Shown piece after piece: positions 14,489 through 62,794 of a stretch of 64,000 nucleotides of DNA; the first letter of the stretch is position 1; every line of letters begins with the position of its first letter. The DNA is taken from positions 224,001 through 288,000 of the forward strand of contig CAWALK010000020.1 in assembly GCA_963782915.1 (NCBI GenBank). The letters are read 5' to 3'. This DNA comes from an uncultured archaeon (GTDB lineage: Archaea; Thermoproteota; Bathyarchaeia; Bathyarchaeales; Bathycorpusculaceae). The position numbers and the translations under genes were made by a program. The notes beneath the pieces were generated by a model that searched no databases, had not been told where the DNA came from, and saw nothing but the letters and a program-made list of their open reading frames with translations.

Positions 14489-14579
14489 GTATTATATTCT
14501 TAATGTCTTTTGAGCGGTTCATTAATTTCTAGGGCTAACACTGTATCAATTTAATCAAATTAACGGTAACTGGTTAACT

Positions 14580-14679
14580 TAGAGAGAGGTGAAAAGAGGC
14601 TTAAACGCAAGTAAGGGAAATTGGAAGAGAGAGGGGAAACCTGCGTTTAAGCTGGCTTTTCACTTCGCTTATCTACACT
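14580..14679 (-). ncRNA. Candidate rod-shaped sRNA with CU-rich loop
   Basis: Stems 14586-96/14656-66 and 14599-609/14642-52; TTATAT box at ~14696-14701 on the minus strand. Confidence 0.45.
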
Positions 14680-15061: not shown

Positions 15062-15095
15062 CCTCCAAGAAATTAATTGTGTTTAGAATTGAATT

Positions 15096-15223
15096 GCCAA
15101 GTTGAGTCTAAACCCTAAGCAGACATCCTAACCGATTCAGCACACACCCAAGACACCGAAGTGCCCCAGGCTGTTACTAGCTTCAGCTTGGATACCACAG
15201 TAAGGCGTGTTCCTCAACTTGAC
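15096..15223 (-). ncRNA. Candidate structured 5' leader RNA (riboswitch-like), family unknown
   Basis: 11-bp closing stem, 7-bp inner stem, cUUCGg hairpin; G-U pairs work only on the minus strand. Confidence 0.6.
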
Positions 15224-15288
15224 ATCACAATGCAGACTCCACATTGAATTTAATCGTTTGTTGGCACACCCTGTAATTATCAATTAGC

Positions 15289-29816: not shown

Positions 29817-30305
29817 ATGTCAGAACAGAAAATTGAAGAATGCAAATGTTACGTAGTAGTTAGAGTTCGCGGCACCGTCAGTGCAATGAGGGAAGCCCGC
29901 GAAACACTCGATCTGCTCCGCTTAACACATACTAACCATGCAATCATAATTGACAGCAGACCAGCCTACAAAGGCATGCTACAACGCGTAAACAACTACG
30001 TAACTTGGGGCGAACCCTCCAAAGAACTCATCGTTGCAATGCTTACCAAACGCGGAAGATTCGCAGGCGACCATAAAATAGCTGAAAACATCGAAAAAAC
30101 CGGTTACAAAACCATCGAAGAACTCGCAGACGCCATAGTTAACTGCAAAGTTGCATACAGCAAACTACCAGACATCGAAGCACGCTTTAAGCTGCATCCA
30201 CCAAGCAAAGGCTACAAGGGTCAAACCAAGAACAGCTTTAAATCCGGTGGCGAAGCAGGTTACCGCGGCGCAGCCATCAACGACTTAGTCAAACGCATGG
30301 TCTAA
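29817..30305 (+). CDS. rpl30: 50S ribosomal protein L30
   Basis: VVRVRG...GMLQRVNNYVTWGE...LHPPSKG...INDLVKRM. Confidence 0.96.
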   Translation: MSEQKIEECKCYVVVRVRGTVSAMREARETLDLLRLTHTNHAIIIDSRPAYKGMLQRVNNYVTWGEPSKELIVAMLTKRGRFAGDHKIAENIEKTGYKTIEELADAIVNCKVAYSKLPDIEARFKLHPPSKGYKGQTKNSFKSGGEAGYRGAAINDLVKRMV

Positions 30306-30451
30306 GACCATCCGTTCCAACTTTATATTTTTTAATTTTTAATTTTAATTAATTAGCGAATTCTGTTAATAATTACTAATTTGTACTAACGGTAAGTTTC
30401 TAAATCCAAAAAGTTAGCTACAAAAAAAAGAACAAAGAAATTGTGGGAAAC

Positions 30452-31105
30452 TTAGTTGGTGTTTTCGAAGGTTTCTTTGAGTACACTGCGGTTTCTCCAG
30501 AAAACTTTGGATTCCGCAACATACTCTTTCTGTTGGGTGTTGTGATGTAGCATTGCACCCAAGTTCTTCTTTGCCACATATGCTTCTGCTGCGCGTAGAG
30601 GTTTGTAGATGAATGTGAAGTAGGCTGTTGCTGATCCCATCAAGAATCCGCTGAACCATAGTGGAGCTACGAAGAAGAAGAAATAGAAGTTCCACACATC
30701 AACGGGGCCGAATAATGCGATTTGTACTGGCGGCGGATAGGTCATGTTTGTCCAGTAGAAGCTGCCCAGCATGAAGTCAAGTGTGTTGAAGCCTAGTCCG
30801 GTCATGACTATAGCTATGAAGAATGCGCCTGTTAGGATTAAGATGTGTTTTTTGGTTTTTGTGTAGTTGAAGAATGAGGACATTGCAAGTCCTGTGGCTA
30901 AACCGCCGATTGCCATTGTTGCCAACCCAAAGAGGCTGTAGGCGTATTGGGCGTCCATGACGATGTAGTTGTTCATGTGCCACTGGAACGTCGCGTTTAC
31001 GCCGTACCATTCAGCGCCAATCATAACTCCAACATACAAACTATAACAGAGTAAAATAACGCTTAGCACCAATGCTGATGCTAAAGCAATTTGCTTTCCC
31101 CTCAT
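30452..31105 (-). CDS. Hypothetical multi-pass membrane protein
   Basis: Four hydrophobic segments; likely start MRGKQ at 31105. Confidence 0.65.
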   Translation of the reverse strand: MRGKQIALASALVLSVILLCYSLYVGVMIGAEWYGVNATFQWHMNNYIVMDAQYAYSLFGLATMAIGGLATGLAMSSFFNYTKTKKHILILTGAFFIAIVMTGLGFNTLDFMLGSFYWTNMTYPPPVQIALFGPVDVWNFYFFFFVAPLWFSGFLMGSATAYFTFIYKPLRAAEAYVAKKNLGAMLHHNTQQKEYVAESKVFWRNRSVLKETFENTN

Positions 31106-31300
31106 ATTCTCCCTTCCGAAACATGGAGGTAATTGCATCATTCTTAAAACTTTCTGAATCCGTAGATGGAACCATCGCTTGGATTCGATTGATATGCTAA
31201 TCCGTTTGCTATGGTTGCTCAAATGTTTTCTTGGAATGTTGAATCCGTATGCAACAAGCGTTAAATAATACTTCAAATACAACCACCCACTGGTGATGCG

Positions 31301-31606
31301 ATGCAGAAGTGGGCTGATTACTTAATCTCTTCCGTACGAACTAACCCGAGTAGTTGCCTTGTTGATTCTATGGAGATTCATTCAGACTTCGGTAATATGG
31401 TCTGTGAAACCGTAATAGCTTCTAGGGCAGATGTTATCGCCAACATAAAGCGGGGCATCACTTACTCCACAGTGTTTAAGACTGCGATGGGGAAATGGCG
31501 TAAAGGCGACGATGTGCACTTAGTTACCGTTAATGGGCAAGAGTATCTGCGTACTGATAGTGAATGTGTGGCTAAGGATCAATTCGACGAAGTGCCTGAA
31601 TTATAA
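31301..31606 (+). CDS. DUF3892 domain protein
   Basis: KWADYLIS...SRADVIANI...VHLVTVNGQEYLRTD. Confidence 0.8.
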   Translation: MQKWADYLISSVRTNPSSCLVDSMEIHSDFGNMVCETVIASRADVIANIKRGITYSTVFKTAMGKWRKGDDVHLVTVNGQEYLRTDSECVAKDQFDEVPEL

Positions 31607-31656
31607 AACTTACAACTTAACTTACCCCTATCAAAAAGCAAGTGTTCATACTGTTG

Positions 31657-31779
31657 TTAAATGGACACTTTGATTTCAGAGTATATGCTTTTGTGTTCCC
31701 TTAATCTGTGCTCTCTTAATTTGTTTGGGTTAGACATCATTGCTTTGCATATTGGGCATTTCAAAAACATGTAATCCAT
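31657..31779 (-). CDS. 40-aa C2H2 zinc-finger microprotein (not in ORF track)
   Basis: MDYMFLKCPICKAMMSNPNKLREHRLREHKSIYSEIKVSI*; C-x2-C-x12-H-x4-H; AGGAGG 6 nt upstream. Confidence 0.75.
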   Translation of the reverse strand: MDYMFLKCPICKAMMSNPNKLREHRLREHKSIYSEIKVSI

Positions 31780-31799
31780 AGCAGTCCTCCTTGGAATTA

Positions 31800-31908
31800 G
31801 GCGGACTTTTGCTCTCTTAATCCAAGTTTATCTATTAAGAGATAGCCTATTGGTGATGGAAACGAGTCTGTCTTGGCTGCGGTAAACTTGGACTACAGCA
31901 AGCCCGCC
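31800..31908 (-). ncRNA. Candidate kissing-loop leader RNA upstream of the Zn-finger microprotein
   Basis: 9-bp closing stem enclosing two hairpins whose loops CCAAGUUU and AAACUUGG are complementary. Confidence 0.6.
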
Positions 31909-32321
31909 CATTCAAAACGTGGATTTGAAGATAGTTAAATGATTGTTGGCTTCGCCCTGAAACAACTACTCAGAAAGTGAATATCTTAACGTTAAATTGC
32001 CCGCTCATTATTCAAGGAGTGTTAATGCATGCAATTTAGGCCCTATCAATAAAAGTCGTGAACAATAAATTTGAGTTATAATAGGAAAAAGGAGGGAGAG
32101 GACAAGAGTCGTCGTCTTTTTTCTCCCTACTTCTCTTTTTGAATAGCTTTGGTTTATCCATTGCTACGCGGTAAATTGGATCAGTGCCGCTTGGCTTGTG
32201 GTTGCATTCGATCTGCATCCTGCGTTAGCCTGCGAGCTTCTTTTCTTTTTGGCTCTTATCCTCACTTAAACTACTGGTGGGTTTAGTGTTATATAATTTG
32301 CGGAAATCCCTCTGGATAGGT

Positions 32322-32400
32322 TTAGTCAAGGAATGTAGACTAACCCTTAGTCAAGAAACATGAACTAAAAACTGCTGATTAGTCAAGGAACCTGCACAAG
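32322..32400. promoter_or_regulatory. Three tandem 22-bp imperfect palindromes (operator-like)
   Basis: TTAGTC-N10-GACTAA (32322), TTAGTC-N10-AACTAA (32347), TTAGTC-N10-CACAAG (32379). Confidence 0.6.
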
Positions 32401-32613
32401 AACCCTTTAATTTCTATCCGATCCAAGGCTTTATTTGTGGAGAAACATGCCAAAAAACAGTTCATCCGTCTATAAAATCTTCTTTGAATCCACTAATTTT
32501 TCACCTCAACTGCAGTACCCTTGGACAGAAGAGTTGCAATCTGAACAGGGGGAGGCTTCCTGAACCAACTAAGAGGCCGCCTAGTAAACGTTGACCTGAT
32601 TCGAACCATCGCC

Positions 32614-33666
32614 ATGATCGGTGTAATCCTCCTACATGCATCAGGCCGCTTCATAATAACCCCCGAAGAAATCAACCAGCTTAGCCCATTGGAGTTTACC
32701 CGCTGGAGCATCGTGGACGTCTATCAAAGCATCGCGGTTCCCTTGGGCGTTCCATTATTCCTAATGCTATCCGGCGCTCTTTTGTTGCAACCCCAAAAGA
32801 AAGATACCTTGCCGGTTTTTTTCAAGAAAAGATGGGCCAGAATCGGTTTACCCTCCCTGTTTTGGGGCACCGCATATTTCGCATGGGATTTTCTGGTCCA
32901 AAATATTCCCTTCTCCGCGGGAGTAATAGTTCAAGGCATACTCAATGGTCCCTATACGCAACTCTGGTACCTCTATGTGCTCGTCGGTCTCTACTTTTTG
33001 ACTCCGATACTGCGCATATTCATGGCTCATGCAGATTCGACGATGATAAAATACTTCATAATCTTGTGGACCGTTGGCGTAGCCATCATACCCTTCTTGA
33101 GCTTATTCAGCATTTACAAACTAAACGATAACGTCTTCGCACTCACTGGGTACGTTGGCTTCTTTGTGTTAGGATCTTACCTATCAACCGTGCACATACG
33201 CCGCAGAACTCTTGGAGCTCTCTTTATTTCCGGCGTCGCCTTAACCGCACTTGGCACATATGCCTTAGCCGCAACAAAGGGCGGGACAGAAATGTACTTT
33301 CTACAACAATACTTTAGCCCAACAATCATCTTAGCCTCAGTCTCCGCGTTTCTGCTGCTAATGACAATTAAGCCCCCCACCATTCAGAAAGACAGCAGCC
33401 CCTCTAAAGTCAACAAGCTAATCAAATTGATCAGCGTAAACACTTTAGGCATATTCTTCATCCACGTAATGATAATTGAATCCATACAATTGGGCTACTT
33501 TGGTTTCACAATGAACCGCACCACACTTAACCCCGTCATCGAGGTTCCATTGTTAACGGCAATCGTGCTGTTTGCTTCTCTTGGGATAATTCTTTTACTC
33601 AAAAAGATACCATATCTAAAACGGTTGATTGATGGGACATCTGAACATTTGGGGGGCGAGGAATGA
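32614..33666 (+). CDS. Acyltransferase family 3 (WecH/OafA-like O-acetyltransferase); true start slightly upstream
   Basis: DLIRTIAMIGVILLH, VPLFLMLSGALLL, QLWYLY, LGIFFIH. Confidence 0.88.
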   Translation: MIGVILLHASGRFIITPEEINQLSPLEFTRWSIVDVYQSIAVPLGVPLFLMLSGALLLQPQKKDTLPVFFKKRWARIGLPSLFWGTAYFAWDFLVQNIPFSAGVIVQGILNGPYTQLWYLYVLVGLYFLTPILRIFMAHADSTMIKYFIILWTVGVAIIPFLSLFSIYKLNDNVFALTGYVGFFVLGSYLSTVHIRRRTLGALFISGVALTALGTYALAATKGGTEMYFLQQYFSPTIILASVSAFLLLMTIKPPTIQKDSSPSKVNKLIKLISVNTLGIFFIHVMIIESIQLGYFGFTMNRTTLNPVIEVPLLTAIVLFASLGIILLLKKIPYLKRLIDGTSEHLGGEE

Positions 33667-34322
33667 ATAGAAAAAAGTTGATGATGCTAGCGGCTGGATT
33701 AGTTGTCCTGCTCATTTCGTCAGGGTTGGTAGCATACTACCTATTCGCTGACAAAGCTTCAGAGTCAATCCGCGTTGCCTGCGTCGGAGACAGTCTCACC
33801 CAATCAACCGAATACCCCTATGACCTGTGGAATCTGCTGGGCAACCAAAGCTATAGCCTCCGCAATTTTGGTGCAGGCTCAACCACAGTTACGCTGCAAT
33901 CAGAAACACCCTACATGAACACAACCGTATTCCAAGACGCCCTAAACTTCCAGCCAAACATCGTAATCATCATGCTTGGAACCAACGACGCCCAACCCAG
34001 CTTGCACCAATTCAACGCAAGCTTTGTCGGTGACTATGTGAAGTTGGTGACGGCATTTCAGGGGCTTTCAAGTAAACCTGAAGTGTGGGTTGTTTTACCC
34101 CCGCCGATTATCAGCAACCAATCGGGCAAAATGGATAGTGCCTATTTCGAGGACACTATAATTCCAGGTATCATGCAAGCGGCAAACGAGACGGATGTGC
34201 CGGTAATTGATGTTTATTCGGCGTTTGCCGAGCGCCCCGATTATTATCTGGATGGGGTCCACGTGAATAGTGAGGGTGCAAAATTAATCGCTGACACGGT
34301 ATATTCGGCTGTTTTTTCCTGA
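33663..34322 (+). CDS. Membrane-anchored SGNH/GDSL hydrolase
   Basis: N-terminal TM; CVGDSLT, MLGTND, DGVH. Confidence 0.9.
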   Translation: MNRKKLMMLAAGLVVLLISSGLVAYYLFADKASESIRVACVGDSLTQSTEYPYDLWNLLGNQSYSLRNFGAGSTTVTLQSETPYMNTTVFQDALNFQPNIVIIMLGTNDAQPSLHQFNASFVGDYVKLVTAFQGLSSKPEVWVVLPPPIISNQSGKMDSAYFEDTIIPGIMQAANETDVPVIDVYSAFAERPDYYLDGVHVNSEGAKLIADTVYSAVFS

Positions 34323-38917: not shown

Positions 38918-39024
38918 CTATATATAAGGGAGGGGGTAGGTCGGCAAAGCAGCAAAGCTGCGTTTTATAGGAGATAGGGGGTCTATGCAGAGCAGCAGCA
39001 GCCTAGTCTATTTATTCTTTATAA
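38918..39024. repeat. Left part of a dispersed repeat copy interrupted by the IS
   Basis: TATATAAGGGAGGGGGTAGG...AGGGGGTCTATGCAGAGCAGC...CTATTTATTCTTTATAA; continues at 40129-40162. Confidence 0.75.
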
Positions 39025-40128
39025 CAGAACAAAGTTTATGAATAGCGCTGTAACCAGCTTTTGGGTATCAAGCATGACTAGCTACAGCGCCATCCCTAGA
39101 CGAAGGGATAAGCTAAAGGCTTACTTATATTTACAGAACAATCGGCAGCTTCCTTAATCTCAAACACGCCCGAAATAGCCAAGAAACCACCAAAACGCTC
39201 ATCCTAGGAGCAGGGACAACAGCTACATAGAAGGGTGCGCACAAAACCTCCAACTTGCGCAAACAGTCAGAAACCACGAAAACAACAAAACCCTCAACAA
39301 AGACCCAAATCAACCGGCAAACAATCTAGCAAATGAAACAAAAAGGCGCCCTAAACAAGCCACTGGTTGTAGCCATAGACTGGCATGATGAAATGTACGA
39401 CGGTGACCCTAAAGCAAAAGGCGTAGTGGGAACCCACACAAGAACGGCTAAACCATGCCTACAGATATGAACGATAAGTGTTGCTACCGGTCAGAGATTA
39501 ACCTTAGCAGCAGCAACAATGATTCATAGAAGCAAGCTGTGGCATGTCAAGTATCTCCTAGACGTGTCTCTGAGTTGGGCTTAACAGTTAAGCTGGTGCT
39601 GTTGGATCGAGGCTACTTCTCCACTCAAGTGATAAACTATCTAGATGACGCCAAAATAAAGTACATAATGCATATTCCTTGGCATAAGGAGCCCTTAAGA
39701 GCCGGATTGGATGTATTTTATACAACGACTACGCATAAGAAGTCGGTTTTGGATCAGGCGACTTTTAGGCTTGTAACTGTGCGTCAAAACAAGAAGCTGC
39801 TTATTTTTGCTACCAACACCATGTTTAAGCCCAAGGTGCTTAAGAAGACGTTTAGGCGGCGTTGGGGGATTGAGACTTCTTATCGTATGATTGGGTTGTT
39901 TTTGGCTAAGACTACCTCTAAGCTCTATAGGTTGAGGCAGCTGTATTTCTTTTTGGCGGTTGTACTCTATAATTTGTGGGTTTTGTGGAATTTCAGGCGT
40001 AGAAGGCGTGTTAGGACGTATGCTCTTAAGAATGCTGTTAGGTTGTGTTTAGTCTTGTCTTGGCTGCCTGATTTGGAGGCTTACGGTTGATTTTTAGAGG
40101 AGGTGAAACACGATTTTTTGATCTACTG
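39025..40128 (+). mobile_element. ISH3-like (IS4 superfamily) insertion sequence, degraded
   Basis: CAG...CTG ends, ATAA duplicated at 39021-24 and 40129-32, internal DDE transposase fragments. Confidence 0.8.
39330..40090 (+). pseudogene. ISH3-family DDE transposase, frameshifted
   Basis: VVAIDWHDEMYDG, VLLDRGYFS, FRRRWGIETSYR, LYNLW. Confidence 0.85.
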
Positions 40129-46800: not shown

Positions 46801-47850
46801 TTATTTGAAGAGTAAATTTGCATTTCGCCATTGATCCCTAGCTAAAGATATGTAACTACTTGGACCTCCATAAAGCGAATAAGCCACATAACATAGGTAA
46901 TTGCATTGCGTACAATCATGGTATGACTTCCGAAGATCTTCTACCTCTTGGGTTTTCCATTTCTTCGGTAAATCAAAGATTGATCCCAAATGATTGTGGT
47001 TATGGCAACCTGATACTCTGCCCAAATGATCTACTACTAAGAAGTTTTTAAGTGCTTGGCATTTCCAGATTCTTTTTTCTTCATCATAGAGGCTTCGGAG
47101 TGCTTCGAGGAGTTTGGTGGTTATGAGCATTTGTTTGTTTTTCTTTCGCATTTCGATGAGTTGGTTGCAGAGGTTAACCATGGCTTTTTTGTCGGTTATG
47201 ATGAATTCGTCGTTTGGTTTGCCGATTCTGAAGAGTTGATTGGTGTCTACTGAGGTGTCATATGAGTAGAGGCAATACCACATGGGTATTCCTTTGCCTG
47301 TGAAATAGTTAGTCATATCCACGATTTCATGGAGGTTTTTCTGTGAAATGGTTGGTGTTACTGCTACTCTGATGCCTTCACTTCGAAGGGTTTCTACTGA
47401 CTCCATTGCTTTTTTCCATGCGCCAGGAACCGCTTTTATGGCATCATTTTTTGCTGCATCTAAGCTATCGATAGAAATCGCTGCAAAATCCACTTTTCGC
47501 AAGGCATCTACCTTTTTTGCTGCCATACTTCCGTTATCGTAAACTGTTAGTATGAAGCGGTCTGCGGCGTAGTCGATAATTTCGTCGATGTCTGGGCGTA
47601 GAAGTGGGTCTCCGCCTGAGATGGTTAATTCCATTATGCCGATGTCTTTTAGGATGTCGAGGCCTTTCTTTATTTCTTGGGCTGAGAGTTCTCTTTCGTC
47701 TTGTTCTTTCCAGACGTTGCAGCCTACACATCGGTAATTACATTTTCTAGTGACTAACCATTGTGCATGGTGGGGTTTGCCCGGTGATAGAGAACGTGTT
47801 GCTATGGATGCTGCTTTCTTCAAACCTGCCGCCAAATTGTCACTAGCCAA
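46801..47850 (-). CDS. Radical SAM protein with SPASM/Twitch-like C-terminus
   Basis: CNYRCVGC, SGGDPL, ISIDS, C...GRVSGC...CTQC..LC. Confidence 0.9.
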   Translation of the reverse strand: MASDNLAAGLKKAASIATRSLSPGKPHHAQWLVTRKCNYRCVGCNVWKEQDERELSAQEIKKGLDILKDIGIMELTISGGDPLLRPDIDEIIDYAADRFILTVYDNGSMAAKKVDALRKVDFAAISIDSLDAAKNDAIKAVPGAWKKAMESVETLRSEGIRVAVTPTISQKNLHEIVDMTNYFTGKGIPMWYCLYSYDTSVDTNQLFRIGKPNDEFIITDKKAMVNLCNQLIEMRKKNKQMLITTKLLEALRSLYDEEKRIWKCQALKNFLVVDHLGRVSGCHNHNHLGSIFDLPKKWKTQEVEDLRKSYHDCTQCNYLCYVAYSLYGGPSSYISLARDQWRNANLLFK

Positions 47851-62377: not shown

Positions 62378-62794
62378 TTAAGAGAACACAGAGAACGACG
62401 ATTCGCCTTCAGGCTCTTCGTTTTTCTTGTTGATCTCAGCGATTTTCTTGTTAACTTCCTCAACTTCTTTGGTGTTGCCTAAGGCTTTTTGGCTGTCCCT
62501 CACGTTTTCAAGTGCACTTACACCATAACGGTCAAAGCCCTTGCCCAAGGAGATGTCAGCGGATTTAGTGAAGAACTCAACAGCTTTCTCGTATTCTTTT
62601 AGGTTGAAGCTGCATTCGCCTGCTTTATAGTTCATTTCTGCGGAGCCAAAGTAGTTTTGGCCTTTATAGTAGAGGTCTGCGACTTTCGCGAAGAGGTCAC
62701 GTGCCTCTGCGAGTTTGCCGCTCTCCATTAAGGCTTGAGCGTCTTTGTGGAGTTTGATCGTGTCTACTTTTTCAGTCATAATCATCAACGGCAA
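62378..62794 (-). CDS. TPR/alpha-SNAP-like repeat protein
   Basis: Helical repeats (AGECSFNLKEYEKAVEFF). Confidence 0.7.
   Translation of the reverse strand: MPLMIMTEKVDTIKLHKDAQALMESGKLAEARDLFAKVADLYYKGQNYFGSAEMNYKAGECSFNLKEYEKAVEFFTKSADISLGKGFDRYGVSALENVRDSQKALGNTKEVEEVNKKIAEINKKNEEPEGESSFSVFS

Follow-up and report, generated by a model that had tools for sequence, protein, structure and literature searches.

A conserved C2H2 zinc-finger microprotein gene behind an orphan palindrome in a bathyarchaeal genome

The locus

Contig CAWALK010000020.1 of an uncultured archaeon (Bathyarchaeia, Bathycorpusculaceae) carries a small open reading frame (ORF) for a zinc-finger protein of 40 amino acids (aa), with an imperfect inverted repeat directly upstream of it. 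We analysed both features within a 64-kb stretch of this contig (64,000 nucleotides, nt), hereafter called the window (Table 1). A first-pass annotation, made from the letters of the DNA alone, had joined them into one RNA-regulated module, in which a leader RNA with two hairpins, held together by complementary loops, precedes an unannotated C2H2 microprotein. The minus strand is the reading strand for the ORF, the hairpins, the Shine-Dalgarno (SD) site and all leader coordinates. The genus set comprises 120 genomes including the source; counts out of 119 exclude the source.

Table 1. Features of the zinc-finger gene, its upstream element and the segment that holds them, in window positions
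Feature	Position	Strand	Details or basis
Variable segment: zinc-finger gene, hairpin and upstream region, 462 nt	31607..32068		Unaligned gap, BLASTN against the syntenic locus L058
Imperfect inverted repeat, 109 nt; long hairpin if transcribed; single copy, lineage-specific	31800..31908	-	Folding, genome search
Closing stem GGCGGGCUU / AAGUCCGCC	31908-31900 / 31808-31800	-	9 base pairs (bp), one G·U (G31903·U31805)
Hairpin A GCUGUAGU/ACCGCAGC	31899-31892 / 31883-31876 (31876..31899)	-	Alternative local fold, -5.6 kcal/mol
Hairpin B UCUCUUAAU/AUUAAGAGA	31842-31834 / 31821-31813 (31813..31842)	-	9 perfect bp, 12-nt loop, -6.9 kcal/mol
13-bp long-range helix, 5' arm UAGUCCAAGUUUA; includes the hairpin A 'loop'	31883..31895	-	Inverted repeat, pair probability about 1.0
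13-bp long-range helix, 3' arm UAAACUUGGAUUA; includes part of the hairpin B loop and its 3' stem	31818..31830	-	Inverted repeat, pair probability
SD-like AGGAGG	31786..31791	-	8 nt past the stem, 6 nt ahead of ATG 31779
40-aa ORF (with stop), single classical C2H2 zinc finger, MDYMFLKCPICKAMMSNPNKLREHRLREHKSIYSEIKVSI	31657..31779	-	ORF listing, tblastn, alignment, profile, AlphaFold2 (AF2)

A family of free-standing C2H2 microproteins

The ORF behind AGGAGG was present as annotated, with the ligands C8-x2-C11-x12-H24-x4-H29 (31779-31657) in the C-x2-4-C-x12-H-x3-5-H spacing of the class. Its conservation, for which a tblastn search had been proposed, was borne out: at a match threshold of E ≤ 0.01, the zinc-finger family was detected in 96 of the 120 genus genomes (59 of the 73 high-quality ones), and the source genome itself contains nine copies. 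A class-wide draw of 201 genomes yielded 13 with a match, nearly all from genus g1 (7 of 11 genomes) and one sister genus, g26 (2 of 3), with three weak matches elsewhere. The family has expanded in the source genus and its sister genus.

An alignment of 14 members revealed the invariant residues M1, C8, P9, I10, C11, P18, L21, R22, H24, R25, H29 and K30. In the PDB, the family profile matched Aart, a designed finger (2i13, E = 3.2e-9), and 1mey, the consensus finger (E = 1.9e-5). At E ≤ 0.01, PF13894 was matched by 13 of the 14 members (best 3.5e-6) and PF00096 by 11. The AF2 model of the window protein predicts short strands at residues 6-7 and 14-15 and a helix at 18-28 (predicted local distance difference test, pLDDT, 79). 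All top Foldseek matches of this model were C2H2 fingers (root-mean-square deviation 0.4-1.9 Å, probability 0.9-0.99), with E-values of at least 0.2, a weakness that reflects the very small size of the domain. Spacing, profile and predicted ββα fold mark the ORF product as a classical C2H2 finger, and the microprotein half of the proposed module, a conserved ORF of this class, stands. We conclude that the gene is genuine, one member of a family of free-standing classical C2H2 microproteins that has expanded in this lineage. Such a family, of 40-55 aa, with up to nine copies per genome over most of a Bathyarchaeia genus, is the solid result of this analysis.

The two closest natural relatives of the gene come from outside the source assembly. 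P0001, a predicted protein of 43 aa from a Joint Genome Institute (JGI) metagenome, is 86% identical to the window protein. P0001 has a residue other than Met at the position aligned with M1, is called from a GTG three codons earlier and keeps the second in-frame Met (M4 of the window protein); thus the start codon and SD region may vary even among close relatives. A DNA contig of the public run X1 covers 31500-31731, a stretch that takes in the 3' portion of the ORF and the end of the gene next to it, with 10 substitutions and two indels, and then stops. Together, P0001 and this contig demonstrate that the zinc-finger module is not unique to the source assembly. Neither of the two proteins returned from a collection of 5.8 billion proteins was 100% identical to the window protein, which fits its 'unannotated' status and is no proof of it. 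The viral contigs that were searched held no relative. The retrieved papers on Bathyarchaeia, judged by title and abstract opening, do not deal with zinc-finger proteins or riboswitches of these archaea.

Fold of the upstream element

On the minus strand, the closing stem with its single G·U pair and the nine perfect pairs of hairpin B were found as annotated. Hairpin A exists at the annotated place as well, with an A·C mismatch that the annotation did not mention: it has six Watson-Crick pairs, one U·G pair and the mismatch. The complementarity of the loops CCAAGUUU and AAACUUGG over 8 nt was likewise recovered. It extends into both stems and creates a 13-bp helix (31895-31883 / 31830-31818, one G·U) that competes with the two hairpins.

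This competition is one-sided in the predicted folds. The lowest free energy (-37.0 kcal/mol) belongs to a rod built of the closing stem, 4 bp and the 13-bp helix; the three-way junction reaches -28.1 kcal/mol, or -33.4 kcal/mol when extra pairs are permitted. Ensemble pair probabilities were 0.0 for hairpins A and B and about 1.0 for the 13-bp helix. The loop-loop duplex in isolation amounts to -7.8 kcal/mol, and the folding programmes leave pseudoknots out of account. The linker between the hairpins measures 33 nt and is by itself nearly unstructured (-0.7 kcal/mol), so that a three-way junction would be loose. The proposed kissing-loop pseudoknot is therefore not the favoured fold, since the 13-bp helix out-competes both hairpins.

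How unusual the fold appears depends on the control. None of 200 dinucleotide shuffles folded as well as the element (z = -3.94). The native control consisted of 115-nt windows at a step of 40 nt on both strands (n = 3194), with energies GC-corrected by regression and the register picked in favour of the element. Here the element ranked 18th on the minus and 10th on the plus strand, which places it in the top 0.3-0.6% of its own window, too common a position to argue for function. The 64 kb contain 14 inverted-repeat pairs of at least 13 nt within 120 nt, and the 13-bp repeat of the element is one of them. The structure is unusual yet unexceptional and may be due to chance. For scans of this kind, a caution follows: a fold that beats every shuffle may still fall inside the native spread of its window. 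More extreme GC-corrected folds (z -3.7 to -2.7) occur at 38997-39151 (minus strand), 62597-62751 (plus), 47237-47391 (plus) and 14557-14671 (plus).

Two further observations concern the same sequence. A 12-nt exact direct repeat of the minus strand, AUUAAGAGAGCA, occurs at 31810-31821, in the 3' strand of hairpin B, and at 31709-31720, where it codes for the conserved LREH of the family. The 5' strand of hairpin B could consequently pair with the coding region over 9 bp; by our estimate, a stretch of 1.1 kb should contain about 0.04 such repeats. In addition, an ORF of 27 aa, MGGLAVVQVYRSQDRLVSITNRLSLNR (31828-31911, minus strand), covers most of the hairpin with its ATG 1 nt ahead of the closing stem; this ORF has no SD site, and no conservation of it was seen.

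Search for related leaders

The source genome contains no second copy of the upstream element, and BLASTN of 31650-31930 against 60 relatives gave matches to the ORF part only. A covariance model, built from one sequence only plus the rod structure, found no leader in the 119 other genus genomes. The next best matches, in genomes G124 (E = 0.10) and G032 (E = 0.76), were rejected as homologues; their alignments break the helices. With filters off, the model returned nothing at E < 0.1 from 32 loci around zinc-finger homologues and nothing convincing from 26 more loci (syntenic, metagenomic and two marginal matches). A search with a four-row family alignment led to eight metagenome loci with zinc-finger genes of at most 66% identity (L077-L079 and L080-L084), and none of the eight has a leader-like match. 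Exact 21-mers of the element had no match in a collection of genome contigs and none in a collection of viral contigs. Among 80 loci anchored on the ribosomal protein gene of the neighbourhood, 15 of which extend to the gene beside the ORF, tblastn and BLASTN detected neither the zinc-finger gene nor the leader, and the covariance model found no leader in the 65 to which it was applied. Since no homologous leader was found, compensatory change can be neither shown nor refuted. The cmscan check suggested in the annotation was also negative: with Rfam 15, no match at E ≤ 10 within 30500-33000 overlapped the element, and none in the whole window reached the gathering score.

Many genus genomes are syntenic for the ribosomal protein gene, a gene for a 276-aa membrane protein and a 101-aa gene adjoining the ORF. 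In the closest syntenic relative, G122 (locus L058), the 101-aa protein is 97% identical, and BLASTN of 30000-34000 aligned the locus to window positions 30000-31606 (84%) and 32069-32309 (92%). In place of the intervening 462 nt, G122 has 305 nt of unrelated AT-rich DNA that lack a zinc-finger gene. Thus, the zinc-finger gene and the hairpin form a module that is subject to presence/absence variation. Contigs of four public runs (X1, X15, X16 and X17) were compared over 31500-32400 and none covers 31748-32088, the part with the leader and the 5' portion of the ORF; this is uninformative on expression, as the relatives in those samples may be devoid of the segment and rare sequence tends to be lost from contigs. 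Twenty public runs contained words of the query, in small shares of 0.05-0.17 from which no habitat is inferred.

The annotation had drawn a parallel between the element and a second one, termed 15096 (15087-15232, minus strand). The latter folds into a rod-like hairpin of 130 nt (z = -4.75), has no Rfam match and immediately precedes an ORF of 106 aa with GGAGG. The likeness in architecture holds. Homology was rejected: a covariance model from ten copies of the 15096 element finds only itself in the window and not the element at 31.8 kb at E ≤ 10 (best other match E = 0.82, on its own reverse strand), and BLASTN between the two gave words of 6-8 nt only. There is hence no shared profile of sequence or structure. 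The 15096 element is conserved: it is present in 15 of the 119 other genus genomes, twice in G007. No homologue of the element at 31.8 kb was found in these genomes, and this contrast counts against it.

The ribosome-binding site and the promoter

The AGGAGG lies 8 nt past the closing stem, as the annotation had stated. When 31740-31911 was folded as a whole, the rod stayed intact and the SD sequence was placed outside it, in a weak 3-bp hairpin of the dot-bracket structure. The closing stem is not followed by a U-tract, and neither a pairing that hides the SD site or start codon nor a terminator, i.e. no expression platform, is evident in this fold. A 6-bp UCCAAG/CUUGGA alternative beside the SD site exists on paper only.

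The upstream regions of the 36 other family members look quite different, and none contains a comparable leader. In 20 of these 36, a motif of the form A(G/A)TCACA(A/T)A-N4-TATA with a score of at least 13 bits begins 31-74 nt before the ATG, a test that is circular in that the promoter matrix was trained on the same 36 regions. Several of them have SD words of the GTGAT type. The position of the motif and these words together suggest short leaders in the paralogues. The same matrix gave no site of at least 8 bits within 540 nt upstream of the window copy, so no promoter was placed there. The sequence CAACAATCATTTAACTAT (31947-31930) was considered as a promoter of the paralogue type and rejected; the overlapping site 31944-31927 scores only 3.3 bits, and the motif is general. 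In its genome-wide form, A(G/A)(T/C)CACA(A/T)A-N4-TATA(A/T), the motif has 69 sites of at least 13 bits in the source genome, which precede other small Cys-rich ORFs, a CsbD-like ORF and larger genes; it is thus a general promoter form of this genome.

As for other classes of RNA, ARAGORN found no tRNA in the window. A bulge-helix-bulge RNA was discarded by eye, as the internal loops of the rod (a 2-nt bulge, 4 bp and a 1 x 4 loop) do not fit.

Interpretation

Taken together, the locus probably consists of a conserved, nine-paralogue C2H2 microprotein gene behind an orphan palindrome which, if transcribed, would fold as a plain long hairpin and not as a ligand-sensing switch. Translation would most likely start at ATG 31779, with the AGGAGG six bases before it as ribosome-binding site. 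Other single C2H2 fingers suggest, by analogy, that the protein is most likely a small regulator that binds nucleic acid. The element itself is a single-copy, lineage-specific imperfect palindrome. If it is part of the mRNA, it would form one long hairpin with a closing stem of 9-10 bp, 4 bp, the 13-bp helix and a weakly structured apical region of 52 nt, and would leave the ribosome-binding site free. At most, it may act as a stable 5'-terminal hairpin that, for example, slows decay from the 5' end.

Several points weigh against this reading. Hairpin B, with nine perfect pairs, is unlikely to arise by chance in 115 nt (about 0.01 by a rough estimate). A junction with the 8-bp loop contact (about -28 to -33 kcal/mol plus about -8 kcal/mol, less an unknown penalty) could be iso-energetic with the rod, and the kissed junction might be the earlier of the two to arise during transcription. 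Energy gives no strand preference, at -38.0 kcal/mol for the plus and -37.0 kcal/mol for the minus strand, and the element may fall outside the mRNA altogether. Homologues that have diverged are easily missed by exact-word scans and by a covariance model made from one sequence, and the leader searches covered DNA other than that upstream of the ORF in the P0001 contig and in the X1 population. Four instances of the word CCAAG or its complement fall within about 115 nt (31890 to 31792), for which the long hairpin offers no explanation. Finally, the window protein scores below the Pfam gathering cut-offs (19.5 versus 27 bits for PF13894; 16.7 versus 25.2 bits for PF00096).

The module as first proposed was RNA-regulated, and this half of the proposal is not supported: the searches found no related leader and no Rfam match, no expression platform is visible, and the kissing form is not favoured. 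A riboswitch-like aptamer, either a closed three-way junction with loops kissing over 8 bp or a switch between kissed and extended forms that controls the zinc-finger gene, is very improbable. It would account for the coexistence of three helices and an 8-nt loop complementarity, for a fold more stable than 200 of 200 shuffles, and for the SD site and conserved small gene directly downstream; hairpins A and B would also be the first to form in transcription. Against these stand the lack of any homologue in the genomes and loci searched, and hence of covariation, the empty Rfam search even at E ≤ 10, a hairpin pair probability of 0.0 versus the 13-bp helix, the A·C mismatch in hairpin A and a junction loosened by the 33-nt linker. 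Moreover, the SD site is unsequestered and no terminator follows the stem, the 36 other family members have no comparable leader, and the element is absent in the closest syntenic relative. We regard as decidedly improbable a more specific version, in which a young, lineage-specific 5' leader toggles between the kissing-loop three-way junction and the extended 13-bp helix, set by zinc, magnesium or the microprotein itself on the CCAAG words, and thereby gives one of nine paralogues its own post-transcriptional control. Were the leader such a switch, which our data do not support, it would represent a cis-regulatory RNA of a kind rare in archaea, observed at its origin.

In another explanation the palindrome does not belong to the mRNA. 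The promoter could lie inside or downstream of the repeat, for instance at TTAATAGATAAA, an AT-rich stretch within the hairpin B loop region (about 31838-31827), in which case the leader would be short, as in the paralogues, and the repeat a chance or neutral product of a fast-evolving intergenic segment. We consider this rather unlikely. It agrees with the promoter-like motif 31-74 nt before the ATG in 20 of the 36 upstream regions on which the matrix was trained, with the empty 540 nt upstream of the window copy at 8 bits, with the 10th to 18th rank among 3194 native windows, with 14 comparable inverted repeats in the window and with the replacement of the segment in the nearest relative. 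Yet the internal AT-rich candidate scores 1.2 bits versus 3.3 bits for the upstream candidate at 31944-31927, and the joint occurrence of a GC-rich closing stem of 9 bp, the 13-bp helix and a local hairpin of 9 bp should be rarer than any of the three taken singly. That the CCAAG/CTTGG words are operator half-sites in DNA, possibly bound by the zinc-finger protein on its own gene, is improbable. Such an operator would make sense of the four words just mentioned and of both strands folding equally well, as a DNA palindrome should, and single C2H2 fingers of archaeal viruses bind DNA (PMC3541406). The half-sites are, however, 52 nt apart, and no such words were noticed by eye upstream of the paralogues. 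Barely credible is an origin from mobile DNA, of which the element would be a relic, be it a miniature inverted-repeat transposable element or some other insertion. Its signs would be terminal inverted repeats, imperfect and about 30 nt long, that flank a core of 52 nt, and the position in a presence/absence-variable segment, but the sequence is single-copy in the genome and missing from the 119 genus genomes, the genome contigs and the viral contigs, and it has no convincing target-site duplication. With one genomic copy and none elsewhere searched, the mobile-element reading failed the multi-copy test.

A neighbouring small RNA gene

On the same strand, 180 nt upstream of the hairpin, we found a conserved, unclassified small RNA gene of about 175 nt (32087-32264, minus strand). 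Its promoter is located at about 32289-32299 and a T-run at 32086-32090. An invariant AAATT.TA.A box stands about 25 nt ahead of the invariant 5' sequence GAGGA(U)AAGAG. The RNA has a 13-bp terminal stem with three covarying pairs, and CCUCUCCCUCC plus U5 forms its 3' end. Identity to G122 is 92% for the RNA gene, versus 84% for the flanking coding DNA. A covariance model detected it in 19 of the 119 other genus genomes, with one match each and two in one genome, and in the compared cases it lies near the syntenic 101-aa gene. No Rfam family was matched.

Contigs of the three RNA libraries X15, X16 and X17 cover 32094-32264 only. One X15 contig is a circular permutation in which 32094 is joined to 32263; it would represent a circle of 170 nt, with the terminal stem capped by UCCC, or else an artefact of ligation or assembly. 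Conserved, covered by RNA libraries and possibly circular, this neighbour may be the better lead. Between its promoter and the acyltransferase gene at 32614-33666 lie three 22-nt direct repeats (TTAGTCAAGGAA...TAA; 32322-32400, plus strand), with 73-77% identity to the first copy and spacings of 25 and 32 nt, which may be a binding array.

Comparison with known systems

Kissing loops are known from riboswitch aptamers and from switches between a kissing complex and an extended duplex, such as the HIV-1 dimerisation site. Like these systems, the upstream element has two hairpins with complementary loops under a closing stem and a possible isomerisation to an extended helix. In contrast to kissing-loop aptamers, it is neither conserved nor supported by covariation, and neither a ligand candidate nor an expression platform is apparent; where the aptamers have a tight junction it has a nearly unstructured 33-nt linker, and the extended helix has the advantage from the start.

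Among small archaeal proteins, the zinc-finger µ-proteins of Haloferax volcanii are of the C4 type with two C(P)XCG motifs (PMC6562870). The window family resembles them as one-domain zinc fingers below 70 aa with many copies per archaeal genome (PMC6562870, PMC11241148, PMC10716476). Unlike the C4 µ-proteins, it combines one CPxC with an H-x4-H pair and is thus C2H2.

The C2H2 proteins of archaeal viruses (AFV1p06; B-129, PF22034) are closer in this regard, being small, archaeal in context and of a eukaryote-like C2H2 fold. PMC3541406 describes C2H2 motifs as almost exclusive to eukaryotes, and AFV1p06 as a zinc-binding protein and the first characterised archaeal C2H2 finger with DNA-binding activity. 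PF22034 was matched by two of the 14 family members at E ≤ 0.01, and B-129 (2wbt) appeared in the PDB profile search at E = 0.088; AFV1p06 was not among the best 60 of 78 PDB matches, and no direct comparison with it was made. In contrast to the viral proteins, the window family is chromosomal, multi-copy and intact in all four ligands, whereas AFV1p06 has a glutamate in place of the fourth histidine.

The closest resemblance is to the classical eukaryote-type C2H2 finger (PF00096 / PF13894), with which the window protein shares the C-x2-C-x12-H-x4-H spacing, the hydrophobic positions, the predicted ββα fold and profile similarity to designed and natural fingers. Unlike classical C2H2 proteins, it is archaeal and comprises a free-standing single finger of 40 aa with neither array nor effector domain, and its family is set apart by an invariant CPIC...P..LR.HR...HK signature of its own.

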